64,000 nt of DNA. Source: an uncultured Planctomycetales bacterium (GTDB lineage: Bacteria > Omnitrophota > Gorgyraeia > Zapsychrales > Fredricksoniimonadaceae). Below, piece after piece: positions 1 through 14,385 of this stretch. Where the stretch lies: contig CAZOXU010000009.1 in the NCBI GenBank assembly GCA_964583975.1, positions 3,195 to 67,194 of the forward strand. Reading direction: 5' to 3'. The notes under the pieces are model-generated. The model saw only the letters and a list, made by a program, of their open reading frames with translations, was not told the origin of the DNA and did no database searches. The position numbers and the translations under genes were made by a program. Numbering within the stretch: the first letter of the stretch is position 1; each line of letters begins with the position of its first letter.

Positions 1-3000
1 TTAACTCAACAGGCAGATCAGCCATTAGCGGTTTTTGATACCAAGGAAGCTTTTTGGCGAGCAGCTCCTTTGTCAGGACAAATACTGGAATTAGAACGAA
101 CTCCGATTCAAACCGTTTATATAGCAACCATGGATCGCGAGGTTGCCTTAAGAACCCAACTCGAGGCAGAGGCAGAATCAAATCGAATTTTCAATCGTCA
201 ATCCCAGCTTGTTATTGTGGATGATTCTACCCAGGAGATCTTAAAAGCTAATCAGAAGACTTTGCAAGAGATGTACAAACGCTTTGGATGGCAGTCTTGG
301 CATATTACGCCACAATTAAGAGAGAAAGAATACGATCAATACACCGATGCCATATTAACACGATATCAAGAAGCCTTAGATCTCAATCAATTACGACCGC
401 AAATTCAAAATATTTTAGAAACAAAGCGAATTATAAGTGACGGCAAGATTGATAGAGTGGCTTTGCGAAAATATTTAGAAAAGAATGTGTTTAATCATAT
501 TTCAGGTGTGCGCAATCGAACCTTGCTTAAGGCCAAAGGCGAGTCAACCATTATGAGCATGGATGATGATGCTCCTCCGGAAACCTATGTGGTAGCCAAA
601 TCCCAACGTGAGCAGATTCGTAAAGATCGATTAGAAGTTCGAGAACAACAAATTCATCAGTTGTTACAAGAGGCAGGTGATTTGTTAGGGGAAACGATCG
701 ACACAGAAGAGCAATTGTATAGGGTATTAGCGAATTTAAATGGAAATATGAATTCCAGGGTTGAAGTGTTGATACAAAGATATTTTGGGTACAACCCTGT
801 TAATCGTGCCGGTCGCATTCCCTTGGCCATGGGAGAGATTCAAAAAAGAGACCAACAAATGTTAGATACTAATGGTTGGGGAGCTTATCTTGGAATTAGT
901 CACCAGAGGTACCACGGGCTTATGACGCCTAGTGCGCCCTATATGTTGACCATGAGTGATTTCGTTTATTCAAAACCCAGAACAGAGAAAAAGCAGGGAG
1001 CATTTGAAGTTCTTCCAGTTAATGTGCATCGGATGGGAGATCTTGTTGGGAAAAAGGCTGGGGAAACCGATCTGCCTCTGATGGGTTCTCCTTTAGATGG
1101 TAAGGGAGATTTAAGAGGAACCATGGCTCAGCCAGTGGAAGCTAAACAAAGAGATGCTTTAGGTCAAAGAACAATCACCTATGTGGCGGCTCCCTTTGTG
1201 GAAGATCAAGATACTTCTGCCGTAGCTCAATTTATTCGTTATCTTCAAATTGAGCATAAAAAAGCAGCCAACTTACAGCATGCCAATCAATCAGCCTTGC
1301 TTGTTGGGGGGGTGGGCGGATTTGTAGCGGATACCTATGTGATTTTTAATCGTGCGGCCTTAAGTAATCAAACGGTTTCTCCTTCCATTGGACGTGATCT
1401 TCGATTGGAGGAACCTCCTTATATTGCTTGGGTGAAGTCTCCAATGCTTAAAAATAGTGTGACGGTGGCCTATTCACCAGTTGCTGGTGGACAACAGCGT
1501 GAGATCGCTGAGCGATTATATGACATTAGTCGGCAAGATTATACAGAAGTAGTGGGTGTAGTCGCTAGGGCATCGTATGAACAAGCCGTACGAAGGTTTT
1601 ATCAAGAGCTTGCCAATAGGCTAGATCTACAGCAAGAAGATAAGCATTATGAACGTTTGAGATTGCTGGGGCAGATGTATATTCAAGAGGCAGAACTTTT
1701 TAAAACGACTCCAGAGCAACAAGAATCATTAGATTATCAAAGAAATGCACGAGCCATGATGCTAGGCGAATTATCTTCACAAAAGGCTAATCTAGAGAAA
1801 CAATTGGTGATTGATCCCACCAATTTGCAGTTAGCCCAGGTTATTCGAGATATAGATTTGATTTTTGTTCAATATGCGGAATCATTTACTTTTTATCATG
1901 CTAAAAAATCGAGTGATACAGATTTTGGTCCTAAAACGGATAGTTCGGATTTCTTTTATAGAATTAAAAGACAGGGCAATCGATTGTTCTGGGAGAGGGT
2001 AATACCTTATCTTGAAGTGGTTCCTGAGCGTGGAGTTAAGGTGGCTAGAAAAACACAATGGTTAAAGCATGGTACAAACGAATCAGGTCAAATTATGATT
2101 GATTCATTAATTGCTAAAGAAAACTTTGAGATAGAGGGTGGACGGGCAATTGTTCTAAGCGAAATCCCAAAAGAGGGAGAAGAGTTGATTGTTCCAGTAC
2201 TTTTTAATCAGATGAGAGAAGAATTTATAAGCAATGTTGAAAAGAAAGCTCGCGATCAAATTATTTCGGATGGAGAATTGATGTTGTTTTGGCCTGATTT
2301 GGTTGATGTGGCTATTCCTTGGCGAGAAGAAGCAAAGGATCTTGTAAGAAAACAAGCTGAAGACGATAAAATTATTGCTCGAATTCGTGCTCTTTCTGAA
2401 CAAAAGCAGGCGGCAGGTCCAGACGAAAAAACAATATTAGGGTCATCATTTTATCAGCTACCTAATCGTAGAGTCCAAAAGGGAAAATTCTCTCTACAAT
2501 TTAATCCCGACCGTGAAAAAAGAAGACCATCACAATATCAAGGAGGAGGGATACAACAACCATTTAATCCAGATGGATTTAACTTTAATAAAATAAGTTC
2601 AGAGGAGATTATCAGTGAAGGAGTATTGCAAGGCATGCAAGTGAGTACTATTGTCAATGCTAGACCATTTGCTGAAGGTCATTTTTTGCTGGTACCCCAA
2701 AGACAAGCGAATCATCCGCAATATTTAGACAAACCAGAATATATTCAGATGGTCTTAGAAAGAATGGCCAATGCAGACAAAGATAATTTGAAAATTACTT
2801 ACAATAGCATAGCAGCTTTCGCATCTTTGAATCATTTGCATTTTCAAGGGTTTTATTATGGAGGAGATCTAGAAGGACAGCCGTTATTCAATAATGGGCA
2901 ATTACCCGTTGAGAAAACGCCACGAGAAAAGATTTCCATCTTAAATGATGTGCAGATTTCCAAAGTCCTGGATTACCCTGCACATGCCCTCGCATTTACT

Positions 3001-3525
3001 GCTAAGGATCGAGTTAAATTAGCTCAGGCAGTTTTTCAATATGTCGATATCCTTAATCAGCGAAAGATAGCTTACAATATTCTTTTTAACAAAACTGAAG
3101 TTATTGTCTTTCCTCGACAGTATCAAAAAGTTAATTCCTTGGGGACTGGAACAGCAGTTTTAGAATTGAGTGGAGAATTTATTGTTAACGATCAAGAAAC
3201 ACTCAATCAAACTACGGAAGATGTAATTAAGCAAAACTTACAGGAAGCAACGATTGCAGAAGATTTATTTAAGGAAACTGTGACAGCATTGGTTGACAAA
3301 GCTATGTTAAGTAATACCGGTGGTATCGATCTAACCCCAGCCAAATTAAACCTGCAAACAAATAGCAATGGCGTAATCTCTGCCAAAGGCGGACCAGCCT
3401 CTGACTGGAAATTCAACCTAGATCCTGCCATGCTAAAGCAATTACAAAATTCCCCAGGCTTTGTACCAGTGATCATCAATATCCAGCCATTAAGAGATCT
3501 GAAATCCTTCCTTGATGTTGTCTAA
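1..3525 (+). CDS. Giant protein, 5' partial (frame open to position 1; first in-window start TTG at 70). The C-terminal ~210 aa is a GDP-L-galactose/GDP-D-glucose phosphorylase (VTC2/GDPGP1)-like HIT domain.
   Basis: 1151-aa ORF with no upstream stop before the window edge. The C-terminal region aligns motif by motif with plant VTC2: FNPDGFNFNK, GHFLLVPQ, YNSIAAFASLNHLHFQGFYY (HxHxQ GalT-branch HIT motif), ILFNKTEVIVFPRQ and AVLELSGEFIV. Confidence 0.7.
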   Translation, partial: LTQQADQPLAVFDTKEAFWRAAPLSGQILELERTPIQTVYIATMDREVALRTQLEAEAESNRIFNRQSQLVIVDDSTQEILKANQKTLQEMYKRFGWQSWHITPQLREKEYDQYTDAILTRYQEALDLNQLRPQIQNILETKRIISDGKIDRVALRKYLEKNVFNHISGVRNRTLLKAKGESTIMSMDDDAPPETYVVAKSQREQIRKDRLEVREQQIHQLLQEAGDLLGETIDTEEQLYRVLANLNGNMNSRVEVLIQRYFGYNPVNRAGRIPLAMGEIQKRDQQMLDTNGWGAYLGISHQRYHGLMTPSAPYMLTMSDFVYSKPRTEKKQGAFEVLPVNVHRMGDLVGKKAGETDLPLMGSPLDGKGDLRGTMAQPVEAKQRDALGQRTITYVAAPFVEDQDTSAVAQFIRYLQIEHKKAANLQHANQSALLVGGVGGFVADTYVIFNRAALSNQTVSPSIGRDLRLEEPPYIAWVKSPMLKNSVTVAYSPVAGGQQREIAERLYDISRQDYTEVVGVVARASYEQAVRRFYQELANRLDLQQEDKHYERLRLLGQMYIQEAELFKTTPEQQESLDYQRNARAMMLGELSSQKANLEKQLVIDPTNLQLAQVIRDIDLIFVQYAESFTFYHAKKSSDTDFGPKTDSSDFFYRIKRQGNRLFWERVIPYLEVVPERGVKVARKTQWLKHGTNESGQIMIDSLIAKENFEIEGGRAIVLSEIPKEGEELIVPVLFNQMREEFISNVEKKARDQIISDGELMLFWPDLVDVAIPWREEAKDLVRKQAEDDKIIARIRALSEQKQAAGPDEKTILGSSFYQLPNRRVQKGKFSLQFNPDREKRRPSQYQGGGIQQPFNPDGFNFNKISSEEIISEGVLQGMQVSTIVNARPFAEGHFLLVPQRQANHPQYLDKPEYIQMVLERMANADKDNLKITYNSIAAFASLNHLHFQGFYYGGDLEGQPLFNNGQLPVEKTPREKISILNDVQISKVLDYPAHALAFTAKDRVKLAQAVFQYVDILNQRKIAYNILFNKTEVIVFPRQYQKVNSLGTGTAVLELSGEFIVNDQETLNQTTEDVIKQNLQEATIAEDLFKETVTALVDKAMLSNTGGIDLTPAKLNLQTNSNGVISAKGGPASDWKFNLDPAMLKQLQNSPGFVPVIINIQPLRDLKSFLDVV

Positions 3526-4147: not shown

Positions 4148-5191
4148 ATGATCAAATTCTTAAGTTCAACACGCCTTACCGTTATTTGCTTGTTTTTGTT
4201 ATTTGTCCTAACCTTCTGGGGAACCATTGCCCAAGTTCATCATGGACTTTATCTTGCCCAAGAACGTTTCTTTAATTCATTCGTCTTTCTAGCCGCAGGG
4301 TGCATACCTTTTCCAGGAGCACAGTTGGTTTTGTGGATTTTGTTTTTTAATCTGTTATGCACATCAATAGTTACCTTTAAGAAATATATACGATGGCCTT
4401 ACGCAGGGTTGCTGATGGTCCATGGAGGGCTTCTTTTATATTTTGTAGCTGCCTTCATGGTGTTTCATGTAGCTGAAGAATCACATGTACGTTTAACTCA
4501 AGGCGAGGCCACCAATGTTTCGACATCCTACTATGACTGGGAGGTGGCGTACTGGCCAGAGGGTAACAATCAGCAGTATCAAGTAACAGCGATTGATACT
4601 ACAGGTTTTAAAGAAGGGTATATCGTTCCTTTTTCAAGCCAAGATTTTGTTTTAAGTGTGAAGAAATTTTATTCCAATTGTGATGATTTTATAAGGCCTA
4701 AACCCATTCTTAAAGAGAGAGAGCAGAATATTGCAGGAGGGACTTTTGATATCACCTTTGAGGGTAAAAGTCATCATTTAATATTGTATGGGGCTGCGCT
4801 GCCGACAAAAGTCAATATAGCTGGGAAAACATATAATTTTATTTTGCGCCATAAACGTTACGTCTTACCTTTTACGATCAAATTAGACAGCTTTAAGGCT
4901 GAATTTTATCCAGGAACGCAGACAGCCAAAAGCTTTGAAAGCTTGGTCAACGTTTCTACAGGAACGCTCCAACGTCAGACGCGTATTTTTATGAACAATC
5001 CTTTGAGGTATAAGGACTACACTCTATATCAAGCCTCCTATGACGTAGATGCAAATGGAAGGGAACATTCGACTTTGGCGGTAGTTAAAAACTTTGCGAA
5101 ATTTTTGCCTTATATCGCCTGTTTTGTTGTTTTTCTGGGGCTGGCTTTGCATTTTTTGATTCAGGCCTTTAGTTCGAGGAATCGCCGATGA
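4148..5191 (+). CDS. ccsB: Cytochrome c biogenesis protein ResB/Ccs1-like (system II), short form
   Basis: N-terminal TM helices, large extracytoplasmic region and C-terminal TM. Its stop overlaps the ccsA start (ATGA coupling). Confidence 0.45.
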   Translation: MIKFLSSTRLTVICLFLLFVLTFWGTIAQVHHGLYLAQERFFNSFVFLAAGCIPFPGAQLVLWILFFNLLCTSIVTFKKYIRWPYAGLLMVHGGLLLYFVAAFMVFHVAEESHVRLTQGEATNVSTSYYDWEVAYWPEGNNQQYQVTAIDTTGFKEGYIVPFSSQDFVLSVKKFYSNCDDFIRPKPILKEREQNIAGGTFDITFEGKSHHLILYGAALPTKVNIAGKTYNFILRHKRYVLPFTIKLDSFKAEFYPGTQTAKSFESLVNVSTGTLQRQTRIFMNNPLRYKDYTLYQASYDVDANGREHSTLAVVKNFAKFLPYIACFVVFLGLALHFLIQAFSSRNRR

Positions 5192-6834
5192 TACTACGTT
5201 TATCTTTAGCGTTAGTGTTGATCTTATTGTTTTCTGGGAATGCTTTGGCTGAATTCAGGATTAATAGTTTTAAGAGTATTCCCGTGCTGGACAATGGCCG
5301 CCTTAAGCCTTTGGATACCTATGCTCGCAGTGTATTAACGCAATTCTCTGGCAGGGACCACTATGGTAAGCAAGAAGCGACCGACTGGTTGGCTTGTGTG
5401 TTCTTTAAATCTCAAACGACAAGTGACGATAAAATCTTTTTAATTAATAACCCTGAGATTGCAACGGCTTTGGGAATCTCTCCGGAAGACCATCGCAGAT
5501 ACGCGCCTGAGCAATTAATCAAATCGTATAGCAAGCTCGAGGTGCTTCACGAAGCAGCGCTGAAGATTCCTGAGCGTGAGCGCAGTCTGGTTGAGAATGA
5601 AATCCTACGTGTATTCGATAATGTTAATCTCTACGCCGAACTTTCGCATTCATTCGTCTTTGCTTTGCCTCAAAAAGATTTTACGATTCTGTCGAGAACT
5701 ACAAAGACAGAGCTTGGTTTGCCGTTAGCACAAGATCAATTTAGTTTTATCGATATTGCCTTAAGAGCAAAGGCCTTACAAAAGTTATTTAAAGGTTTAC
5801 AGAGTAAGTCGCCCTCACAATTTACAAAAGACGAAAGTGAATTGCTGCAAGTCACAGGTAATTTATTCCGTTGGTCTAAAGCTTATAAAGATTTACCTTT
5901 TAATGTGATACCTTCAAGAAATAAAGATCGATGGTTAAGTCCGTGGGATGCGCTGACGTCAGATTTTAGTAATTCCAACACTGTTGAGTTGCTTCTTCTT
6001 TGGAGTCAAATGGCCACAAGTTTTGCTCAAGATAATAAAGCACAATTTGATCTTGTGCTGCGATCTTACCAGAAGATTATTCCTTTAAGCTTGTCTAAGT
6101 CTGAACTAAAGAGTTTTAATAAATTTATCGTGGAATTGTTTTACCATGTTAGCTCTCCATTTACGTGGGCCATTATGTTTTATATTCTTACCTTTGTCTT
6201 TTTTGTCTTCTCATTTTCTTCTTCTAAAAAAATTTGGTATCAATGGGCCATGGCAAGCGCCTTTATAGGTTTTGCCATTCATGTGCTGGGTTTAGCGATG
6301 CGTATTGTGATTATGGGCCGCCCGCCAGTTTCCAGTCTTTATGAAACCTTTATTTTTGTTGGAGCAATCGCTGTCTTTTTAGGGCTAGCCATTGAACATT
6401 TTAATCGACAATGGTTGGGATTTGTGACAGCTGCTATCAGTGGTGCGGTTTTATTATTTATTGCTCATAAATATAGTGCTGAGGGTGACACTTTAAAGGT
6501 ATTGATTGCCGTATTAAATTCTAATTTCTGGTTAGCGACCCACGTAACGAGTATTACTATGGGTTATGCAGCCACCTGTGTAGGAGGAGTGCTTGGGCAT
6601 ATTTGGTTAATTCAGGCTGTTTTTAATAAAGACAGGAAAGTTCTCGATCAAACTTATAAAACAACATTAGGTATTTTAGGTGTAGCCTTGACCTTGACCT
6701 TTCTAGGTACCAATCTTGGTGGTATCTGGGCTGACCAAAGCTGGGGCCGATTTTGGGGGTGGGACCCTAAAGAAAATGGGGCCCTGATGATTGTGCTATG
6801 GATTGCGTTACTATTTCATGCCAAGATTGCTTAA
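5188..6834 (+). CDS. ccsA: Cytochrome c-type biogenesis protein CcsA/ResC. This is the N-terminal 548 aa, ending at an in-frame TAA.
   Basis: Polytopic membrane protein with the WWD heme-handling motif WGRFWGWDPKENGAL near its end. It stops just after the conserved LFHAK segment. Confidence 0.7.
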   Translation: MILRLSLALVLILLFSGNALAEFRINSFKSIPVLDNGRLKPLDTYARSVLTQFSGRDHYGKQEATDWLACVFFKSQTTSDDKIFLINNPEIATALGISPEDHRRYAPEQLIKSYSKLEVLHEAALKIPERERSLVENEILRVFDNVNLYAELSHSFVFALPQKDFTILSRTTKTELGLPLAQDQFSFIDIALRAKALQKLFKGLQSKSPSQFTKDESELLQVTGNLFRWSKAYKDLPFNVIPSRNKDRWLSPWDALTSDFSNSNTVELLLLWSQMATSFAQDNKAQFDLVLRSYQKIIPLSLSKSELKSFNKFIVELFYHVSSPFTWAIMFYILTFVFFVFSFSSSKKIWYQWAMASAFIGFAIHVLGLAMRIVIMGRPPVSSLYETFIFVGAIAVFLGLAIEHFNRQWLGFVTAAISGAVLLFIAHKYSAEGDTLKVLIAVLNSNFWLATHVTSITMGYAATCVGGVLGHIWLIQAVFNKDRKVLDQTYKTTLGILGVALTLTFLGTNLGGIWADQSWGRFWGWDPKENGALMIVLWIALLFHAKIA

Positions 6835-7038
6835 ATGATAGGGCCTTTAGGACTGGCCGTGGGATCCGTGATTGGTATGATGGTTGTCATGTGGGCTTGG
6901 TTTGGTGTTAATCTTTTAAGCGTAGGTCTTCATTCGTATGGATTTACTTCTGGAATTGTAACGACCTTGGTTATTTATGTAATTTGTGAAATAGTTTTTA
7001 TTACCATTACAGTTGGTGTATTAAGCAGGAAGAAATAA
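6835..7038 (+). CDS. ccsA: CcsA C-terminal fragment (67 aa), same frame as 5188..6834 and separated from it only by TAA
   Basis: Contains the conserved ResC/CcsA C-terminal motif FGVNLLSVGLHSYGF and a TM helix. Its ATG immediately follows the TAA. Confidence 0.6.
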   Translation: MIGPLGLAVGSVIGMMVVMWAWFGVNLLSVGLHSYGFTSGIVTTLVIYVICEIVFITITVGVLSRKK

Positions 7039-7047
7039 GGAGTATTA

Positions 7048-7935
7048 ATGTCAGTTCATTTTGCTTTTCGTTTTTATAAATCGGAGAATGTGCGATCCGA
7101 AGAATCTTTAGACTCGGAAGGTAATATTTTCTTTCAAGGGACTAATGGGGCCACGGTTATTCTTATTCATGGATTAACAGGATCGCCACGAGAAACTGCT
7201 TATCTGGCACAGTATTTGAATCGTAAGGGAGGTTATACCGTCCTTTGTCCACGTTTGGCAAATCACGGTCAACCCATGGATATCTTTCGAAAAACAAAGT
7301 GGCAGCAAATGTATGAGTCGGTGCGTAAGGCTTTTTTAGCAAGAGAGGCGGCTGGCGATAAAAATATTTTTGTCTCAGGACTGTCGGTTGGTGCTCTGTT
7401 AGCTTTACTTTTGGCACATGAATTTAAGGGAAGAGTAAAAGGAGTCAGTTGTTTATCTCCCATATTCTTTTTTGATGGATGGAATGCTCCTAAAACGCGA
7501 TTTCTTTTGCCGTTAGGGTTTTATACTCCTTTGAAGTACTATCTCTTCTTTAAAGATGGGTTTCCTTATGGCATTAAAAACGCGATCATCCGCCAAAGGA
7601 TCCATGAATACTATGATCAAAGGACAGTGCATGATTTAGGTGAAGTGACTAAGAATGGCTATCCATTTTATCCTATAGCGTTGCTTTACCAGCATCGGTT
7701 ATTGGTTTCTCATTTGAAACAAAAAATGGCTGACATTGAAGCTCCAGTACAGGTAATTCAAGCCCAAGAGGATGATATGAGCTCGGTTAAGAATGCGCAC
7801 TATGTTTGTGATCGAGTTAAATCCCAAGTTAAAGAGATTGTTTTATTGAAAGACTCCTACCATGTGATTGTTGCCGACCAAGAGCGTGAAAAGGTGGCCT
7901 ACGAATTACAGCGGTTCTTCGATTCTTTAATCTAG
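7048..7935 (+). CDS. Alpha/beta-hydrolase fold esterase/lipase (carboxylesterase or monoacylglycerol-lipase-like)
   Basis: HGLTGSP oxyanion region and GLSVGA nucleophile elbow (GxSxG). About 290 aa. Confidence 0.6.
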   Translation: MSVHFAFRFYKSENVRSEESLDSEGNIFFQGTNGATVILIHGLTGSPRETAYLAQYLNRKGGYTVLCPRLANHGQPMDIFRKTKWQQMYESVRKAFLAREAAGDKNIFVSGLSVGALLALLLAHEFKGRVKGVSCLSPIFFFDGWNAPKTRFLLPLGFYTPLKYYLFFKDGFPYGIKNAIIRQRIHEYYDQRTVHDLGEVTKNGYPFYPIALLYQHRLLVSHLKQKMADIEAPVQVIQAQEDDMSSVKNAHYVCDRVKSQVKEIVLLKDSYHVIVADQEREKVAYELQRFFDSLI

Positions 7936-8010
7936 ACATAATATAATAATCAGTTAAAATGCCATTTTTGTGTAAGCTTTATCCCCCAATAAACAAGGTT
8001 TATTTTAGAA

Positions 8011-9258
8011 ATGACTATAAAAAAGCGAAGAGTGGTAGTCACGGGCTTGGGTGTTTTAGCCTCCAATGGTATTGGTAAAGATCGTTTCTGGGAAGCTAAT
8101 CTTCAAGGCCGTTGCGCTATGGGGCCTATTAGTAAATTTGATGCTTCTGCCTATCAAACCCGCATTGCAGCTCAGCTAACAGGCTTTAATCCTTTAGATT
8201 TTATGCCAGAGGGGGTTGCTAGTAAGGTTGATGAGTTTGCCCAATTTGCTCTAGCGAGTGCCAGAATGGCCCAAAAAGACAGTGGTTTGAAACTCGAGGC
8301 AGAGAATCCTTATCGTTTAGGGGTTGTGATTGGTTCAGGTTTGGGCGGAATGTTTTTTTATGAACGTCAAATTACCGCCGTACTTGAGGCGGGCCCAAAA
8401 AAAGCACATCCTTCTTCGGTCTTACGGGTAATGCCCAATGCTCCTTCGGGAGTTGTTTCTATTGAACTTGGTTTAAAAGGCCCTAATATGACGGTTGCAA
8501 CAGCGTGTGCCTCGGGTAATCATGCCATTGGCCAAGCTTATGAAATGATTTGTCACAATAAGGCGGATGTTATTTTTGCGGGGGGAAGCGAGGCCCCGAT
8601 TGTTCCTTATACCTTTGCTGCCTTTGATAATATGCGCGTTATGTCTAGAAAGAATGATACACCGCTAGAAGCTTCCAGGCCTTTTGATAAGGCAAGGGAT
8701 GGGTTTGTGATGGGAGAGGGATCAGCCATGTTGGTTCTTGAAGAGTTAGAACATGCCCAAAAGAGAAATGCTCATATCTATGCCGAAATCGTTGGCTATG
8801 CTTTGACTTCGGGCGCTCAACATATGGTTATTCCTATTGCTGATGGCGAAGATGCAGCCCGCACCATGCGTTTGGCCTTAGCAGATGCCGGTTTGCAGCC
8901 AACGGAGGTTAGTTATATCAATGCTCACGGAACATCCACCACCGCGAATGATCGAGCTGAAACCCTGGCGATCAAGGAAGTTTTTAAAGAGCAAGCGTAT
9001 AAGATTCCAATTTCTTCTACAAAATCAATGGTTGGTCATACCATTGGGGCTGCTGCAGCTATTGAAGCTGTGGCATGTTGTTTGGCTATTCAAAATAATA
9101 TTGTTCCTCCGACAGCTAATTATCAACAGTCTGACGGGGAATGTGATTTAGATTATGTGCCAGGAGTGGCACGCGCTCATAAGGTGGATGTAGCTTTATC
9201 CAATTCTTTTGGGTTTGGAAGTAACAATGCTACGTTAATATTCAGGAGGTTAAAGTAA
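8011..9258 (+). CDS. fabF: 3-oxoacyl-ACP synthase II (KAS II, FabF-like)
   Basis: Active-site Cys in ATACASGNHAIG, the His motifs HGTSTTANDRAE and MVGHTIGAAAA, and a 415-aa length. Confidence 0.85.
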   Translation: MTIKKRRVVVTGLGVLASNGIGKDRFWEANLQGRCAMGPISKFDASAYQTRIAAQLTGFNPLDFMPEGVASKVDEFAQFALASARMAQKDSGLKLEAENPYRLGVVIGSGLGGMFFYERQITAVLEAGPKKAHPSSVLRVMPNAPSGVVSIELGLKGPNMTVATACASGNHAIGQAYEMICHNKADVIFAGGSEAPIVPYTFAAFDNMRVMSRKNDTPLEASRPFDKARDGFVMGEGSAMLVLEELEHAQKRNAHIYAEIVGYALTSGAQHMVIPIADGEDAARTMRLALADAGLQPTEVSYINAHGTSTTANDRAETLAIKEVFKEQAYKIPISSTKSMVGHTIGAAAAIEAVACCLAIQNNIVPPTANYQQSDGECDLDYVPGVARAHKVDVALSNSFGFGSNNATLIFRRLK

Positions 9259-9522
9259 ATGTCCACAGTAGATCCCGCAGCTATTGAATTAAAAGTGAAA
9301 CAAGCCTTAGCTAAAGTATTAAATATCAAAGAGGATACTATTACAGTAGAAAAGCGATTAGTTGAAGATTTGAATATTGATTCTTTTGGGGCTGTTGAAC
9401 TCGTATTTGAACTTGAAGACTTAACAGGCATTGAAATTCTACAAGCAGACTACATTAATTTAAAAACAGTTGGGGATGTCAGTTCTTTTATTTGTTCCCG
9501 TTTGGCTACTAAAAATGCTTAA
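9259..9522 (+). CDS. Acyl carrier protein (dedicated ACP)
   Basis: 87 aa with a DSFGAVELV phosphopantetheine-attachment Ser motif. Its start abuts the KAS stop (TAAATG). Confidence 0.8.
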   Translation: MSTVDPAAIELKVKQALAKVLNIKEDTITVEKRLVEDLNIDSFGAVELVFELEDLTGIEILQADYINLKTVGDVSSFICSRLATKNA

Positions 9523-10225
9523 GAATAAAAATTCAGAATATAAAGGCTTTCAACCAGCAGATTGTCGTGTTTTTTTTGATTTTGATAACACTATATCGAA
9601 GGGTGATGTGCTTGATGATATCATCCAACGTTTTTCCATCAATCGAGATTGGGTCGCTTTACAAGAGGCCTGGTTGGAAGAACGAATTAGTGCTAAGGAA
9701 TGTTTGTTAGGTCAAATGAAGGGAGTTCGGATTTCTCCTGCAGATTTGAGCCAATATTTGACCACCGTTGTTTTAGATCCACACTTTTCATCATTACTGG
9801 CCTGGTTGCGTAATTATGGCGTTGAGCCTATTATAGTCAGTGATAACTTCCAAACGATCATTGAGCAAGTTTTGCAGTATAATAATATCCACGGATTAAC
9901 GGTTTATGCCAACCATTTGGAATTTTCTAATGACAGTCTTGTTCCTTCTTTCCCATATCAAAATCCCAATTGTCGTTCTTGTGCGCATTGCAAGAAAACA
10001 CATTTTCAGAAAGATGATCCAAGAAGCATCGTTTACATTGGCGATGGACGTTCTGATATTTGTGCAGCCAAAGAATCAGACCGAGTGTATGCTAAGGATA
10101 CGCTTTTGAAATATTTCCAGAAACACAAATTAGCTTGTGTAGAGTTTGCAAATCTTGGCGATGTGCATGAGCATTTAAAGGAGGAGGCCAATGGAACAGT
10201 TGTTACGACGCAACGAAGGGGCTAA
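9515..10225 (+). CDS. HAD-superfamily phosphatase (DxDxT; MtnX/PSP-like)
   Basis: FFDFDNT motif I and IGDGRSD motif IV. I moved the start to the MLKNKN Met so it does not overlap the ACP. Confidence 0.6.
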   Translation: MLKNKNSEYKGFQPADCRVFFDFDNTISKGDVLDDIIQRFSINRDWVALQEAWLEERISAKECLLGQMKGVRISPADLSQYLTTVVLDPHFSSLLAWLRNYGVEPIIVSDNFQTIIEQVLQYNNIHGLTVYANHLEFSNDSLVPSFPYQNPNCRSCAHCKKTHFQKDDPRSIVYIGDGRSDICAAKESDRVYAKDTLLKYFQKHKLACVEFANLGDVHEHLKEEANGTVVTTQRRG

Positions 10226-11597
10226 GGACCAAAAACAAGAAGAGCTTTTAGCTAAAGAAGCCCAATATTGTTCTTGGGGTGATACAGTCCATTATGCCAA
10301 GGAAATTAAGGTTTTCAGCCGAACCGAAGGGATCTATGTTTATGACCGTCAAGGAGTCCAATACCTTGATTTGCAAATGTGGCATTCGGCTGCAAATTTC
10401 GGATATAAAAATGAACGTTTGAATAATATTTTAAAAGACCAGATCGATACCTTACCCCAGCTCAATAGCCAATATTTGCATGAAGAAAAGATTTTGCTTG
10501 CTGAAAAGATTGCTAAAAATGTTGAAAAAACTTTTGGCGTTAAAGGAAGGGTGCATTTTAATGTTGGTGGCGCGGCTGCTATTGAAGATGCGATCAAAAT
10601 TGTCCGTAATTATACAAAGAAAAATGCCATGTTTGCTTTTATGGGTGGTTATCATGGACGCACCTTAGGCGCAACCGCCATTACCTCAAGTTACCGTTAC
10701 CGAGAAAATTATGGAACATTCTCAGATCGGGCCTATTTCATAGAATATCCTTACCGTTTCCGTTGCACCGCTGCTAGTAAAGAAAAATGCTGTGACATGT
10801 CATGTTTCAAAGATTTTGAGAAGCTCTTTGATTCAGAATATTATTCGATCGTTAATCCTAAAACCAAAAATTGTGAATACGGAGCCTTCTTTGTCGAGCC
10901 AGTGCAGGCAACTGGCGGCTATATTGTGCCTCCTAAGGATTATTTTAAACAGCTTAAGAAGGTCTTAGACCGACATCAAGTCTTGTTTGTGGCTGATGAA
11001 GTTCACATGGGTTTCTTTAGAACAGGTAAGATGTGGGCGATTGAACATTTTGGCGTGGTCCCTGATATCATTGTGTTTGGCAAATCGTTTACCAATGGGC
11101 TTAATCCGCTTTCAGGAATATGGGCTAAGGAGCATTTGATTTCTCCAGAAATGTTTCCTGCAGGTTCAACGCATGCCACATTCTCTTCGAATCCTTTAGG
11201 AACAGCCGCTGCGCTGGGTGTCATGAATCTTATTGAAGATTCTGATTTCGCCACATCCGTCCCTCAGAAGGGCGAATATTTTGTCAAACGTCTTAAAAGT
11301 TTGATGAAAAAATACCCGGAAATTGGCGAGGTTGATGGTTTAGGATTGGCTTTGCGTATTGAAATCTGCCAGAAGGATGGCTTTACACCTAATCGTGAAT
11401 TGACCGATAAAATTATGAATATCGGATTAAAAGGTCAATTAACAGCTGGTGGTAAAGAACGTGGATTGCTCTTGAGCATTGGTGGATACTATAAGAATGT
11501 TTTTAATTTGGCTCCATCTTTGTATATTACTAATCAAGAAATAGATTTAGCTGTAGATTTATTTGATGAAGCTTTTACCAAAGCCTTGAAGACCTAA
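10191..11597 (+). CDS. Class-III (PLP, omega-type) aminotransferase
   Basis: AAIEDAIK, GGYHGRT, ADEVHMGFFRTG and FGK (PLP Lys) motifs. A strong RBS, AAAGGAGGAGG, lies upstream. Confidence 0.8.
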   Translation: MEQLLRRNEGAKDQKQEELLAKEAQYCSWGDTVHYAKEIKVFSRTEGIYVYDRQGVQYLDLQMWHSAANFGYKNERLNNILKDQIDTLPQLNSQYLHEEKILLAEKIAKNVEKTFGVKGRVHFNVGGAAAIEDAIKIVRNYTKKNAMFAFMGGYHGRTLGATAITSSYRYRENYGTFSDRAYFIEYPYRFRCTAASKEKCCDMSCFKDFEKLFDSEYYSIVNPKTKNCEYGAFFVEPVQATGGYIVPPKDYFKQLKKVLDRHQVLFVADEVHMGFFRTGKMWAIEHFGVVPDIIVFGKSFTNGLNPLSGIWAKEHLISPEMFPAGSTHATFSSNPLGTAAALGVMNLIEDSDFATSVPQKGEYFVKRLKSLMKKYPEIGEVDGLGLALRIEICQKDGFTPNRELTDKIMNIGLKGQLTAGGKERGLLLSIGGYYKNVFNLAPSLYITNQEIDLAVDLFDEAFTKALKT

Positions 11598-11694
11598 TTT
11601 TGTCGTGTGAATCAAATCAATTGACGAACCTCTCCATACCTTGTACTGTAAGCCGTCATTTATGCATCTTTTTCAACCAAGGCAGGGAGGACGA

Positions 11695-12699
11695 ATGAGA
11701 ATTACCGACGTAGCTCTACTTGTAAAAGGTGCAGTTGAGGGAAATGGTGAAATTGATATTATAGGCTTAAGTGGTCCAACTACGGCTAAGGCTAATGATT
11801 TAACCTTTGCTGTGGATGAATGCAAACTCTTAGTTGCTGAACAAAGCCTAACGGGTTGCATATTAACCACTAACACCGTCAGAAAATCTACTAAACCTCT
11901 CATCCGAGTCCATAATCCAAAGCTTGCTTTCTTAACTCTTTACCATGCATTGTATAAACCAGTTGTTAGGAAGTCTTTTGTCCATCCTACGGCCGCGATA
12001 GGTAATTTTGTAAAATTTGGGAATAATGTCTGGGTAGGTTCCCATGTAACAATCGAAGATAATGTTACTATCAAGGACAATAGTATTATCGAAAGTGGTT
12101 GCATCATTAAAAAGAATTGTTGTATAGGAGTCTCTTGTCATTTATATCCTCGCGTGCTTCTTTATGAAAATATTATATTAAAAGACAATGTCATCCTACA
12201 TGGCGGAGTCGTGGTTGGGTCTGATGGTTTTGGTTATGTGAAAGACCAAGGTGTAATTTATAAATTTCCGCAATTAGGTAAAGTTATTATTGAAGAAAAT
12301 GTCGAGATCGGATCTAATTCTACGATTGATAGGGGTTCTTTAGAGGATACGATCATAGGAGCTAATTCTAAAATCGATAATCTCTGCCATGTTGCTCACA
12401 ATGTGAAGATCGGAAAGAATCTCATTATGGCAGCACAAAGTGGGATTGCAGGAAGCACAGTGATAGGCGACAATGTTACGATCAGCGGACAGGTTGCCAT
12501 TACTGACAATGTCACAGTAGGCTCTAATGCTGTGATCGGTGGAAAAAGCGCTGTTATTGGTGATATCGATGATCGTTCGGTTGTTTGGGGAATTCCTGCT
12601 CGAAGCCTTGCTCAAACAAAAAGACAAATGGCTGTTGCTTCTTGGTTGACCAAGAATTTTTCCATAATTTCAAAGATTGTGAAACAAAAATCCTCTTGA
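11695..12699 (+). CDS. LpxD-like UDP-3-O-acylglucosamine N-acyltransferase (left-handed beta-helix / hexapeptide)
   Basis: N-terminal LpxD-type domain followed by long hexapeptide repeats (IGxNxxI). I set the start at the MRITD Met with a GGGAGG RBS rather than at 11641. Confidence 0.7.
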
Positions 12700-12727
12700 G
12701 AAATAACTTACAGAAGAGGAGTTAATT

Positions 12728-13000
12728 ATGATCCAAGAATTACCTATTCGAACTCCGCCGTTTACTCCGTTCAAATTTAAGAGATATTTTGAATCTAAAA
12801 ATAATAAGATCAGGATTTTTGGTTTATGCGAAGTGACAGGCAAGAATTTTGAAATATTTGTGCCGGTGGAAGGTTTTTTTGTCTATTTGCAGGGCTTTAA
12901 AAATATTGTAGAGGCTTTGTTTAGTTCTTCCAAAGAAGAGCGTGAGTTTATTTTGACAGGAACTTCGCCAGAAGGCTATAGAAGTCGTAGAGATCAATGA
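12728..13000 (+). CDS. Hypothetical small protein (90 aa)
   Basis: Good RBS (GAGGAG). Its stop overlaps the start of the downstream helicase. Confidence 0.35.
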   Translation: MIQELPIRTPPFTPFKFKRYFESKNNKIRIFGLCEVTGKNFEIFVPVEGFFVYLQGFKNIVEALFSSSKEEREFILTGTSPEGYRSRRDQ

Positions 13001-14385
13001 TGGATGCTTCCAAAGATTTTAAAAGTGTAGGTTTAAGTAAGGCCATGCTTGATAATCTCAAGTCCCTTGGTTATTTGGAGATGACACCTATTCAGGAAAA
13101 GGGCTTGCCATTTATTTTAAGTAAGCGGGATTTTATTGGTCAGGCTAATACTGGCAGCGGTAAAACAGCTGCCTTTGCTTTAGGCATCCTAGCCAAATTA
13201 GATTTAACCATTCCGATGCCACAGGCCCTGGTGTTGGTTCCTACGCGCGAATTAGCCGAGCAGGTAGCTAATGAAATCCGTCGCCTGGCACGCTTTACCA
13301 GTAATATTAAGGTGCTGACCATCTGCGGCGGTTCAGAAGAACGTCATAAGGTTAAGTCGCTCAAGCAGGGTGCGCATATCATTGTGGGAACTCCTGGTCG
13401 CATCACCAAATTACTCAAAACAGGAGTACTTATTACCAGTGATCTTAAGGTCTTGGTATTAGATGAAGCCGATCGTTTGCTAGAAATGGGATCAATTGAG
13501 GAAATAAACCGTATTGCCTCATTTACGCCCGTGGATCGCCAAACCATGTTGTTTTCTGCGACATTTCCTCACGGGATTAAAACATTAAGCGCCAGCCTGC
13601 AGGAAGATGCAGCGCAAGTGACTATTGACTCGCAACACCAAAATACAACCATCAAACAATTATTTTTTAAAGTCGAAGATCAAAAGAACGATGCCTTGTT
13701 GCGTCTTTTGGGACACTATAAACCAGAATCCTGCATTATTTTTTGTAATAGCAGGGAAGCGTGTAACACTGTCTCAGGATTGTTACGTACTAAAAAAATA
13801 GATTCTTTACAGATGCATTCAGATTTAGAGCAAGCTGACAGAACACTTATTTTAATCAAATTTGATAATAAAAGTTGCCGTATTATGGTTGCGACTGACT
13901 TAGCATCGCGTGGTCTGGATGTGAAGGATGTAGGTAGTATCATTAATTACGATTTGCCAAGCGACCCCGAGCTCTATGTTCATCGCATTGGAAGAACCGG
14001 ACGAGCGGGGCAAGAGGGGCTGGCGCTGAGCTTGTATACCCATAAAGAACGGGCCACTCTGAGAACGATGGGCACTTATTTAAAAACTGAGTGTATGATT
14101 AAAGAATTAAATGAATTGCATCCTATTCAACTGAGAGCTGACCGTCTTGTGGCAGAAATGTCGACCATTTATATTAGCGGCGGCAGGAAGGATAATATCC
14201 GTCCTGGCGATATCTTAGGTGCTTTGACCAAGGAAGCGGGGCGCAAAGCCCAGGACGTCGGGAAGATTCATATTTTAGAAGTTAATAGTTATGTAGCCAT
14301 CACCCCTGAAAAACAAGAAGAAGCAATCGAGCGACTGAACGCAGGGAAAATTAAAGGCCGAAAGTTTAGAGTTGGAAAAGCTTGA
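12997..14385 (+). CDS. dbpA: ATP-dependent DEAD-box RNA helicase, DbpA-like, with a C-terminal RNA-binding domain
   Basis: Motifs GSGKTAAF, PTRELA, DEAD, SAT and HRIGRTGRAG, plus a C-terminal DbpA RBD (GGRKDNIRPGDILGAL). Confidence 0.85.
   Translation: MMDASKDFKSVGLSKAMLDNLKSLGYLEMTPIQEKGLPFILSKRDFIGQANTGSGKTAAFALGILAKLDLTIPMPQALVLVPTRELAEQVANEIRRLARFTSNIKVLTICGGSEERHKVKSLKQGAHIIVGTPGRITKLLKTGVLITSDLKVLVLDEADRLLEMGSIEEINRIASFTPVDRQTMLFSATFPHGIKTLSASLQEDAAQVTIDSQHQNTTIKQLFFKVEDQKNDALLRLLGHYKPESCIIFCNSREACNTVSGLLRTKKIDSLQMHSDLEQADRTLILIKFDNKSCRIMVATDLASRGLDVKDVGSIINYDLPSDPELYVHRIGRTGRAGQEGLALSLYTHKERATLRTMGTYLKTECMIKELNELHPIQLRADRLVAEMSTIYISGGRKDNIRPGDILGALTKEAGRKAQDVGKIHILEVNSYVAITPEKQEEAIERLNAGKIKGRKFRVGKA

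Follow-up and report, generated by a model that had tools for sequence, protein, structure and literature searches.

A recurrent five-gene module of lipid-related enzymes and a probably separate lpxD block lie side by side in an Omnitrophota genome

The run of six genes at positions 7048–12699 of a 64-kb window (the whole stretch of DNA analyzed, from a genome of Candidatus Omnitrophota) probably consists of two separate units set side by side by a lineage-specific rearrangement: a lipid module (unit 1, 7048–11597), and an ordinary LpxD block (unit 2, 11695–14385) that begins with the sixth gene. The first five genes, encoding an esterase, a KAS II, a divergent ACP, a HAD phosphatase and a class III enzyme, form a recurrent module that was found in eight other Omnitrophota loci in two gene orders. 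The features discussed are the following, with bit scores and, where given, cut-offs of the profiles.

7048..7935, + strand: alpha/beta hydrolase of the Est30 / monoacylglycerol-lipase type (Pfam Hydrolase_4, 61 bits)
8011..9258, + strand: beta-ketoacyl-ACP synthase II, FabF type (TIGR03150, 547 bits, cut-off 493.75)
9259..9522, + strand: divergent acyl carrier protein (PF00550, PP-binding domain, 38.6 bits)
9515..10225, + strand: MtnX-like HAD-IB phosphatase (TIGR01489, 106.5 bits, cut-off 81.55)
10191..11597, + strand: atypical class III (fold-type I) PLP enzyme (PF00202, 265 bits, cut-off 30.5)
11695..12699, + strand: canonical LpxD, UDP-3-O-acylglucosamine N-acyltransferase (TIGR01853, 305.1 bits, cut-off 242.5)
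12728..13000, + strand: orf90, a small conserved protein encoded alongside lpxD and RNA-chaperone genes
12997..14385, + strand: DbpA-type DEAD-box RNA helicase (NF008744, 609.6 bits, cut-off 524)

Profile searches confirmed all six ORFs on the + strand, each with the domain claimed for it in the original prediction. The junctions, described there as tight or overlapping, are so only in part. The ATG of the ACP directly follows the fabF stop codon (0 bp), exactly as predicted, the ACP and HAD genes overlap by 8 bp, and the HAD and aminotransferase genes by 35 bp; but 75 bp with a promoter-like site inside lie between the hydrolase gene and fabF, and 97 bp between the aminotransferase gene and lpxD. 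Among the six genes, tight coupling is limited to fabF, ACP, HAD and aminotransferase, which form a translationally coupled series in this order. On its other side, lpxD is only 28 bp from orf90, which overlaps dbpA by 4 bp, and lpxD is therefore bound more tightly to the genes downstream. Co-direction is weak evidence here, because the + strand carries approximately 50 of the approximately 56 large ORFs of the window (about 90%), and junctions with overlaps are frequent elsewhere in it too. The true evidence of linkage is conserved synteny, and this is valid for the five genes and not for lpxD.

When the neighborhoods of 53 aminotransferase-orthologue loci were surveyed by tblastn and ORF clustering, the partner found most often was the HAD gene (33 loci), followed by the hydrolase (29), small EamA proteins (21), a FemAB-like GNAT (17), an arginase-like protein (14) and FabF (12); lpxD was a partner in none of them. 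The results showed that the conserved core consists of the alpha/beta hydrolase, the MtnX-like HAD-IB phosphatase and the atypical class III PLP enzyme, and that FabF and ACP often join this core in Omnitrophota. In the eight other Omnitrophota loci with the same five genes the set is kept while the order is shuffled (abh-fabF-acp-had-at or fabF-acp-abh-had-at). The hydrolase-HAD-aminotransferase synteny is shared by Omnitrophota, Alphaproteobacteria, Binatia and Betaproteobacteria, and even in Bathyarchaeota, where the orthologues adjoin an APH-family kinase, the HAD-aminotransferase pair is kept. The same operon was found on 34 PLSDB plasmids from Rhizobium, Agrobacterium, Bartonella, Phyllobacterium, Sinorhizobium and Xanthomonas, the cluster being carried by megaplasmids in Rhizobium, Agrobacterium and Bartonella. 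An orthologous operon of Rhizobium leguminosarum is found on pRL23b4 (HA463_RS38105–RS38065). Only generic RefSeq names were given to the genes in the one annotated plasmid operon that was read whole, and in the annotated aminotransferase hits.

Fuller clusters add an arginase-family protein, two small ArnE/F-like EamA proteins, a FemAB-like GNAT and a two-component system, and two-component systems flank many clusters; FabG/FabZ, PagL, DegT, a fatty acid desaturase or CFA synthase occur as occasional extras. The lipid and LPS genes near relatives of the module comprise FabG/FabZ, PagL, an LpxL-family acyltransferase, ArnT-like PMT_2, Wzy_C, the desaturase and CFA synthase. In locus L019 the hydrolase directly upstream of HAD is replaced by PagL, which in L026 is found between FabF and HAD. 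Conversely, one clade of close aminotransferase orthologues (L002–L009, approximately 80% identity) stands alone without partner genes, and the 64-kb window contains no FemAB-like, EamA or arginase-like gene anywhere.

The best conserved gene of the module, and a member of its core, is that of the PLP enzyme, the orthologues of which are 54–86% identical across phyla. The subclassification by profile that had been proposed for it succeeded at the level of PF00202, but the enzyme passed no NCBIfam equivalog in the profile search. The catalytic PLP-binding Lys (FGKS) is kept in all 53 orthologues. The family signature is EPxQ[AG]TGG and GGYYKNVF[T/N]LAPSL, in contrast to the Glu and Arg of GabT-type enzymes; the enzyme of the window reads EPVQATGG and NVFNLAPSL, and its closest solved homologues QG[ED][AG]G and NV[IL]R. 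With the canonical positions read off aligned archaeal homologues, the family consensus is Thr/Asn at that of the alpha-carboxylate-binding Arg and Thr at that of the gate Glu, which we take to be R398 and E211 in GabT numbering. The enzyme is thus probably not a standard transaminase, because these two residues are missing from its sequence, and it does not match the canonical 2-oxoglutarate- or amino-acid-dependent class III transaminases (GabT, ArgD, OAT type). A class III phospho-lyase (ETNPPL 6tor, Arthrobacter 5g4i) was also considered. The loss of the gate Glu is common to the present family and 6tor, but the solved phospho-lyases have Lys at the Arg position (NVLKIKPPM in 6tor, NVLKMRPPL in 5g4i) and the present family Thr/Asn.

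The HAD-IB phosphatase, likewise a member of the core, directly adjoins the aminotransferase in 33 other loci among the 53, from Omnitrophota to Bathyarchaeota. The prediction of a DxDxT phosphatase held: the translation contains DFDNT and GDGRSD motifs together with a Cys-rich cap, and TIGR01489 is exceeded. ATG at 9515 is a better start than TTG at 9470. The protein also matches PF06888 (57.8 bits), the family of PHOSPHO1-type phosphoethanolamine/phosphocholine phosphatases. It was rejected as MtnX proper, the methionine-salvage phosphatase, with scores of 69.8 against 303.2 (TIGR03333) and 84.7 against 292 (NF007103). The third core member, the alpha/beta hydrolase, lacks a signal peptide and carries the nucleophile motif GLSVG; its top PDB matches are the Est30 carboxylesterase and thermostable monoacylglycerol lipases, and its orthologues adjoin the HAD and aminotransferase genes in about 29–30 of the 53 loci compared.

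FabF is an accessory member of the module, and is catalytically intact by alignment to B. subtilis FabF 4ls5, with the triad Cys (ATACASG), His (NAHGTST) and His (VGHTIG) in place. Its relatives (56–73% identity) are all found in non-canonical lipid contexts and two are followed by an ACP, while none of the four examined belongs to a canonical fab operon. Outside the closest aminotransferase-orthologue locus (L001), the closest FabF-ACP pair (73% identity) has as neighbors a hydrolase, an EamA protein, a FemAB_like-EamA fusion, ArnT-like PMT_2, a polysaccharide deacetylase and an LpxL-family acyltransferase. The ACP retains the phosphopantetheine-site Ser (DSF motif) but is below every NCBIfam ACP cut-off in the profile search: it scores 53.7 against 70.45 for TIGR00517, and 58 against 71 and 56 against 66 for other housekeeping AcpP models (the test covering TIGR00517 and PRK00982). 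Because of these scores and of the 39% identity to E. coli AcpP over 46 residues, the designation ‘private ACP’ is reasonable.

The protein encoded by the sixth gene looks like an ordinary lipid A enzyme outside the module, heading an lpxD-orf90-dbpA block. The acyltransferase, for which a choice between LpxD and other left-handed beta-helix types had been left to profile searches, was typed as LpxD by TIGR01853 and NF002060 (308 against 207). In alignment with E. coli LpxD 3eh0, His239, Asp232 and Asn233 (E. coli numbering) are kept, as is the GxDGFGY motif, which aligns with GADGFGYA. The N-terminal uridine-binding domain PF04613 scores 21 bits against a cut-off of 30.8, the region aligning with E. 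coli LpxD from residue 2. The gene orf90 has no Pfam or NCBIfam match, and the helicase has the DEAD, Helicase_C and DbpA domains.

The surroundings of lpxD in relatives are of the same kind. Six contexts of LpxD orthologues (63–87% identity) carry a CSD (CspA-like) protein, IF-1, an RRM protein, an orf90 homologue or a DEAD/DbpA helicase, and none of them, including those of 87% and 83% identity, has an aminotransferase upstream of lpxD. An orf90 homologue (83% identity) is found in L085, in an RRM-CSD-IF1-LpxD-DEAD neighborhood, and the contig P0003 has an 89-aa ORF between RRM and DbpA. In one relative two lpxD copies flank CSD and DEAD helicase genes, while the window has a single lpxD. 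The position of lpxD away from fabZ-lpxA, which had been read as a sign of specialization, is none here, because lpxD is normally a stand-alone gene in Omnitrophota. Nor did the role of LpxD as the N-acyltransferase of the pathway find support: lpxD is absent from the vicinity of the aminotransferase orthologue in all 53 loci, even the closest (L001, 86%), and the protein is a standard orthologue. The adjacency of LpxD and module occurs only in this genome. Thus, of the specialized lipid pathway originally proposed, the dedicated lipid-related module of five genes is retained, but not LpxD as its last step.

Unit 1 is probably a reduced copy of a widespread, uncharacterized envelope-lipid module. 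In such a module the dedicated ACP would carry an acyl chain that FabF builds or extends, the pair of phosphatase and PLP enzyme would make or process a phosphorylated amino-alcohol or amine head-group precursor, and the hydrolase could release, transfer or remove an ester-linked acyl group. The product would be an amine-bearing lipid or a decoration of LPS or another outer-membrane lipid; in complete clusters the FemAB-like enzyme might add an N-acyl group to it, and the EamA pair might carry it across the membrane. Since all members of the module and of the extended cluster are uncharacterized, we can only infer what the pathway makes and whether it serves synthesis or remodeling. Unit 2 is probably an ordinary set of LpxD, orf90 and the DbpA helicase, of the kind typical for Omnitrophota, where lpxD occurs with cold-shock and RNA-chaperone genes.

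The reduced module of the window includes no obvious acyltransferase, which leaves room for the original model with all six genes, in which the LpxD-like enzyme N-acylates a sugar or amine, using the chain made on the ACP or the amine made by the aminotransferase, to give a modified lipid A or an aminolipid. The gene lpxD does follow the aminotransferase gene on the same strand; the 97-bp spacer contains no terminator-like site and no stable hairpin, and it lacks the promoter-like element that is conserved upstream of lpxD in three relatives (L081, L085 and L086), so read-through from the aminotransferase gene into lpxD is possible. Relatives of the module also occur near lipid A genes (PagL, LpxL-family acyltransferase), and in L086 a module-type HAD gene (53% identity) lies two genes after lpxD. 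However, with the adjacency in none of the 53 aminotransferase loci and none of the six LpxD contexts, an orthologue that keeps the catalytic His and the substrate-binding motifs, and a tighter link of lpxD to an orf90-dbpA block conserved in relatives, we regard this model as very unlikely. Even harder to accept is that no pathway exists at all, and that housekeeping genes have come together by chance in a compact, gene-dense and nearly one-stranded genome. The strand bias and common overlaps described above would fit this, as would a FabF above the housekeeping equivalog cut-off, the apparently dispersed fab genes of Omnitrophota (as in the four FabF contexts) and the close aminotransferase orthologues that stand alone; but the core synteny spans phyla, FabF and ACP join it repeatedly in differing orders, the ACP is under all AcpP cut-offs, and rhizobia carry the cluster on accessory replicons.

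It is also possible, although we think it unlikely, that the core trio serves to break down lipid head groups instead of making them. In that case the MGL-like hydrolase would deacylate a glycerolipid or an LPS acyl ester, a phospho-amino-alcohol such as phosphoethanolamine would be disposed of by the PHOSPHO1/MtnX-like phosphatase together with the PLP enzyme, the latter as an amino-alcohol-phosphate lyase, and FabF and ACP would re-supply acyl chains, with the two-component system switching the process on under envelope or nutrient stress. A kinase with a class III phospho-lyase is a known arrangement in amino-alcohol catabolism, and the APH-family kinase beside the Bathyarchaeota orthologues is consistent with it, as are the match of the HAD protein to PF06888, the loss from the PLP enzyme (as from 6tor and 5g4i) of the Glu and Arg by which the 2-oxoglutarate/glutamate co-substrate is bound, the ability of PagL, a deacylase, to replace the hydrolase, and the two-component systems at many clusters. 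Against this, both solved phospho-lyases have the Lys (NVLK) that is Thr/Asn here, one of the two enzymes would be superfluous if phosphatase and lyase shared a substrate, and the recurrent FabF, FabG, FabZ, ACP, GNAT, CFA synthase and desaturase are a better fit to synthesis or modification. Two units, a lipid module and an ordinary LpxD block, remain our preferred reading.

The module resembles several known systems in part. The acpXL-fabZXL-fabF2XL-fabF1XL-lpxXL cluster of Rhizobium, for very-long-chain secondary acylation of lipid A, likewise pairs a dedicated ACP with an adjacent KAS II paralogue away from the fab operon; one module relative (L050) completes the set with FabG and FabZ, and another (L089) has an LpxL-family acyltransferase nearby. 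The window, however, has FabF and ACP only, of the FabZ/FabF paralogues and LpxXL that mark such clusters, and an acpXL-type lipid A cluster was rejected: Lip_A_acyltrans, FabZ and FabG were absent from the annotated large ORFs of the 64 kb (a few ORFs of 120–160 aa lay outside the scan), with no LpxL/LpxXL-type acyltransferase, the ACP is above no specific ACP family cut-off, and acpXL clusters contain nothing that corresponds to the module core (hydrolase, HAD-IB phosphatase, class III PLP enzyme). With the Arn system (PmrHFIJKLM; L-Ara4N on lipid A) the module shares the presumed cytoplasmic introduction of an amino group, the small EamA/SMR-like pair (ArnE/F-like), putative two-component control and, in one relative, ArnT-like PMT_2 with an ArnD-like deacetylase; but ArnB is of the DegT family and the module PLP enzyme of class III, ArnA and ArnC homologues are missing from the module, and the window is without any membrane components.

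Ornithine lipids (OlsB/OlsA) and other aminolipids are similar in the proposed outcome, acyl-ACP-dependent N-acylation of an amine head group, and the full cluster has a predicted GNAT-type acyltransferase and a predicted ester-forming or -cleaving enzyme, but these are FemAB_like PF04339 and an alpha/beta hydrolase, as opposed to PF13444 in OlsB and the PlsC-type OlsA. Pairs of aminotransferase and HAD phosphatase, for example NtdA/NtdB for kanosamine, convert phosphorylated keto precursors to amino-alcohols or amino-sugars, and the PLP enzyme and HAD phosphatase of the module are likewise an invariant adjacent pair; NtdA, however, is DegT-type, and the module PLP enzyme is without the usual co-substrate-binding residues. 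For the LpxD block only, Francisella LpxD1/LpxD2, which are temperature-specific, and the cold-induced E. coli LpxP offer a possible parallel to Omnitrophota lpxD, which lies among cold-shock-type genes; the relative with two lpxD genes is like Francisella, unlike the window with its single copy.

We tentatively raise the possibility, doubtful as it is at present, that the core with its recurrent partners (FabF-ACP, arginase-like protein, EamA pair, FemAB-like GNAT, two-component system) is an undescribed pathway for a new amine-bearing envelope lipid or LPS decoration, horizontally shared between Omnitrophota, rhizobial and agrobacterial megaplasmids, Bartonella and Xanthomonas, with the PLP enzyme representing a new class III reaction or specificity without the carboxylate-binding Arg. 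Dedicated-ACP pathways of the acpXL type, Arn, PagL and ornithine lipids influence how permeable the outer membrane is, how well stress is tolerated and how the cell interacts with a host, and the module appears to be an uncharacterized relative of these systems, very widely distributed and with a PLP enzyme that is unusual. The presence of culturable plant-associated bacteria among its carriers makes genetic study feasible. For Omnitrophota, which are mostly known from metagenomes, an lpxD gene away from fabZ-lpxA and beside cold-shock-type genes is the norm and does not mark a specialized paralogue, while the module points to accessory envelope chemistry.

We first considered the genes themselves. 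All six ORFs of the original prediction were present on the forward strand, and profile searches upheld the domains claimed for them:

7048-7935, + strand: alpha/beta hydrolase of the Est30/monoacylglycerol-lipase type (type from PDB matches)
8011-9258, + strand: FabF, above the equivalog cut-off, with the Cys-His-His triad intact
9259-9522, + strand: ACP
start most likely ATG 9515, + strand: MtnX-like HAD-IB phosphatase of 236 aa, with DFDNT near the N-terminus
10191-11597, + strand: class III PLP enzyme
11695-12699, + strand: LpxD, with His239 and the surrounding motifs of E. coli LpxD kept

The HAD gene most likely starts at ATG 9515, since this start yields a 236-aa protein with an N-terminal DFDNT, matching the 236-aa orthologue in L001, the closest related locus. 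The predicted tight or overlapping junctions were found between fabF and the ACP gene (0 bp), the ACP and HAD genes (8-bp overlap), and the HAD and PLP enzyme genes (35-bp overlap), but not between the hydrolase gene and fabF (75 bp) or between the PLP enzyme gene and lpxD (97 bp). As judged from these reading frames, fabF and the ACP, HAD, and PLP enzyme genes are translationally coupled. The 75-bp gap holds a promoter-like site. Neither spacer contained a terminator-like site or folded more stably than shuffled sequence, and no Rfam family was found in the window. Downstream of lpxD, 28 bp separate it from orf90, which overlaps the DbpA helicase gene by 4 bp. Co-direction and close spacing are weak evidence here, since about nine-tenths of the large ORFs in the window lie on the forward strand and overlapping genes are frequent.

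Searching the window by tblastn with its own FabF, ACP, and LpxD, and with E. coli AcpP, revealed no second fabF, ACP, or lpxD gene, and no lipid A or fab genes were recognised when most of its remaining large ORFs were annotated with Pfam. Among these other ORFs, a 1151-aa frame (70-3525) had no Pfam matches, and a 1428-aa protein (26769-31055) had transketolase/E1-like domains confined to its C-terminal two thirds, preceded by an N-terminal extension of approximately 530 aa without a match. The CcsA-like cytochrome c assembly gene (5188-7038) has an in-frame TAA at 6832-6834, after which the frame continues for about 68 codons, including the conserved WAWFGVNLLSVGLHSYGF C-terminus, to a stop near 7038; the intact CcsA of a relative has 622 aa. 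The TAA may reflect a nonsense mutation (a pseudogene), a gene split in two, or faulty assembly.

To compare the module across relatives, we collected 80 loci that encode relatives of the PLP enzyme, mapped the window proteins onto them by tblastn, and clustered all ORFs from the 53 loci with a PLP enzyme orthologue (54-86% identity), the closest of which came from Omnitrophota MAGs. The window itself belongs to a Candidatus Omnitrophota genome. The HAD gene adjoined the PLP enzyme gene in 33 of the 53 loci, the hydrolase gene was nearby in 29, and FabF, mostly accompanied by a small ACP, was encoded in 12. The complete five-gene set of the window was found again in eight Omnitrophota loci and in two gene orders, a pattern typical of functionally linked genes. 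The other recurring partners were an arginase-family protein, a FemAB_like/GNAT protein (PF04339), a DegT aminotransferase, one or two EamA proteins as small as ArnE/F, and an OmpR-type two-component system. Arginase-like, EamA, and FemAB-like genes were absent from all 64 kb of the window, and the window copy is a reduced five-gene version of the module.

Single clusters contained further lipid-related genes. FabG and FabZ were encoded in one (L050) and PagL in two others: in L019 directly upstream of the HAD gene, replacing the hydrolase, and in L026 between the genes for FabF and HAD. The FabF-ACP pair nearest to that of the window, L001 aside (73% identity), was surrounded by genes for a hydrolase, EamA, a FemAB_like-EamA fusion, an ArnT-like PMT_2 protein, a polysaccharide deacetylase, and an LpxL-family acyltransferase. 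The synteny crosses phyla. Plasmids of Rhizobium, Agrobacterium, Phyllobacterium, Sinorhizobium, Bartonella, and Xanthomonas, 34 in all, carry the same operon, extended by genes for a fatty acid desaturase, a CFA-synthase-like methyltransferase, and MipA/OmpV. R. leguminosarum pRL23b4 has the single annotated operon that was read from end to end; its RefSeq names were all generic, and the names of the aminotransferase matches on other annotated plasmid records were equally so. On this conjugative plasmid (NZ_CP050090.1, 106980-126299), the complete 10-gene cluster begins with the HAD-IB gene and ends with the CFA-synthase-like gene, beyond which lies the convergent MipA/OmpV gene. Given these lipid- and LPS-type partners, the associations of the module agree in indicating chemistry of envelope lipids or LPS.

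The PLP enzyme was also encountered in other settings. A clade of orthologues approximately 80% identical to the window enzyme (L002-L009, e.g. L003 6953-11140) has no HAD or hydrolase neighbours, and its genes lie between a PPK2 kinase gene and BamE-like and O-antigen-ligase genes; the MAG nDJH2bin18 carries both a stand-alone (L009) and a module-linked copy (L052). In two Bathyarchaeota loci (L044 2134-5155 and L051 369-3348), the gene pair for the PLP enzyme and HAD-IB phosphatase (54% identity) recurs with an APH-family kinase gene next in line; lipid genes are absent there.

The original prediction had made LpxD the final member of a six-gene acyl-lipid pathway leading to a modified lipid A or an aminolipid. 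This most striking element of the claim failed. None of the 53 PLP orthologue loci, L001 included, had lpxD within the flanks compared (up to 8 kb per side), and none of the LpxD orthologues with 87, 83, 75, 71, 70, and 63% identity had the PLP enzyme upstream. Their neighbours were instead cold-shock-domain proteins, IF-1, RRM RNA-binding proteins, and DEAD/DbpA helicases, and one locus (L085) had, by lpxD, an orf90 homologue 83% identical to that of the window. In the 83% LpxD relative, the order was LpxD-RRM-orf89-DbpA, then ResB, CcsA, and Ogt, three genes that the window also has, though in a different arrangement. Together with the lpxD neighbourhood in relatives, this shift makes a recent rearrangement the best explanation for lpxD lying next to the module. 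The acyltransferase passed the LpxD model TIGR01853, and the orthology evidence marks it as the standard enzyme of the phylum.

The possibility that the module and lpxD are functionally coupled has a small probability. It is favoured by a promoter-like element that three relatives share upstream of lpxD and that the 97-bp window spacer lacks, and by L086, where a module-type HAD gene lies two genes past lpxD. The element (approximately TGTAAGCACATCTTAAGTATTTATAATCA, including TATAAT) is located at L081 7900-7960, L085 4790-4850, and L086 7940-8000, and the window spacer showed no alignment with the regions preceding lpxD in relatives. The L086 phosphatase (11212-11922) is 53% identical to that of the window; its gene follows those of a histidine kinase and a response regulator, with no PLP enzyme adjoining.

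As read at window 11695-14385 and around position 8000 of L081, L083/L084, L085, and L086, lpxD of Omnitrophota is a stand-alone gene, found repeatedly among CSD, IF-1, RRM, orf90-family, and DEAD/DbpA genes and not with fabZ-lpxA. On the L083/L084 contig, two lpxD copies flank CSD and DEAD helicase genes. By analogy with LpxD1/LpxD2 of Francisella, this setting among cold-shock-type genes suggests that lipid A acylation may be temperature-linked.

The ACP missed every curated ACP cut-off and was distant from AcpP, in agreement with the private carrier originally proposed. FabF, with its intact triad, is catalytically ordinary and may be either a dedicated or a housekeeping synthase. Four of its relatives (56-73% identity) were all in non-canonical contexts, namely with ACP and lipid-modifying genes (two), with a hot-dog thioesterase (one), or fused to a receiver domain (one), and no canonical fab operon surrounded any of them. 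Many close FabF relatives (56-68% identity; see also L091 7001-8602) were fused to a response-regulator receiver domain (P0138, P0158, P0165, P0173, P0181, and others) or to a PilZ domain (P0144, P0162, P0164, P0172), which implies that these putative KAS II paralogues are under direct signalling control.

The PLP enzyme is the best-conserved gene of the module, with Omnitrophota sequences 54-59% identical to those of Alphaproteobacteria or Bathyarchaeota. Its class III assignment stood, but no NCBIfam equivalog was passed, and its nearest solved homologues were archaeal racemases and omega-aminotransferases at approximately 200 bits. The motifs Q[A/G]TGG and NVF[T/N] occur in each of the 53 orthologues, as opposed to QG[E/D][A/G]G and NV[IL]R in the archaeal homologues, and the catalytic Lys is kept. 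The replaced positions are the gate Glu and carboxylate-binding Arg of GabT-type enzymes. The enzyme is thus probably not a standard amino-acid:2-oxoacid transaminase, and its motifs place it in a distinct predicted subfamily. The loss of Arg and Glu prompted a phospho-lyase reading. The canonical Glu and Arg are likewise missing from the two class III phospho-lyases of solved structure, but these have Lys at the Arg position, a signature absent here, and the reading is retained as a rival only. A methionine-salvage role for the HAD protein was rejected, as its scores fell below the MtnX equivalog cut-offs. BioC/BioH/BioA-like logic (esterase, FabF/ACP, a BioA-like enzyme, and the methyltransferase encoded upstream in L001) was rejected because the methyltransferase is not conserved, BioF is absent, and the BioA score is far under the cut-off.

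We propose that FabF would lengthen an acyl chain carried by the dedicated ACP, while the HAD protein and the PLP enzyme would make or process a phosphorylated amine or amino-alcohol head-group precursor, and the hydrolase would free, transfer, or strip an ester-linked acyl group. Complete clusters may add FemAB-like N-acylation, membrane translocation by the EamA pair, and two-component control. The product could be an amine-bearing lipid or an outer-membrane/LPS decoration. The main rival is that the same core serves salvage or remodelling.

Full-text literature searches turned up no relevant account of the cluster or of its FemAB_like/COG3146 component; the single mention of COG3146 encountered was an invalidated prediction. 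Among dedicated-ACP and envelope-modification systems, the module stands as an uncharacterised variant, and it is neither a known pathway nor the six-gene LpxD pathway of the original prediction. Its enzyme families are familiar; its attractions are its broad distribution, its odd PLP enzyme, and culturable hosts that make it testable, with the pRL23b4 cluster as a tractable system for experiments.
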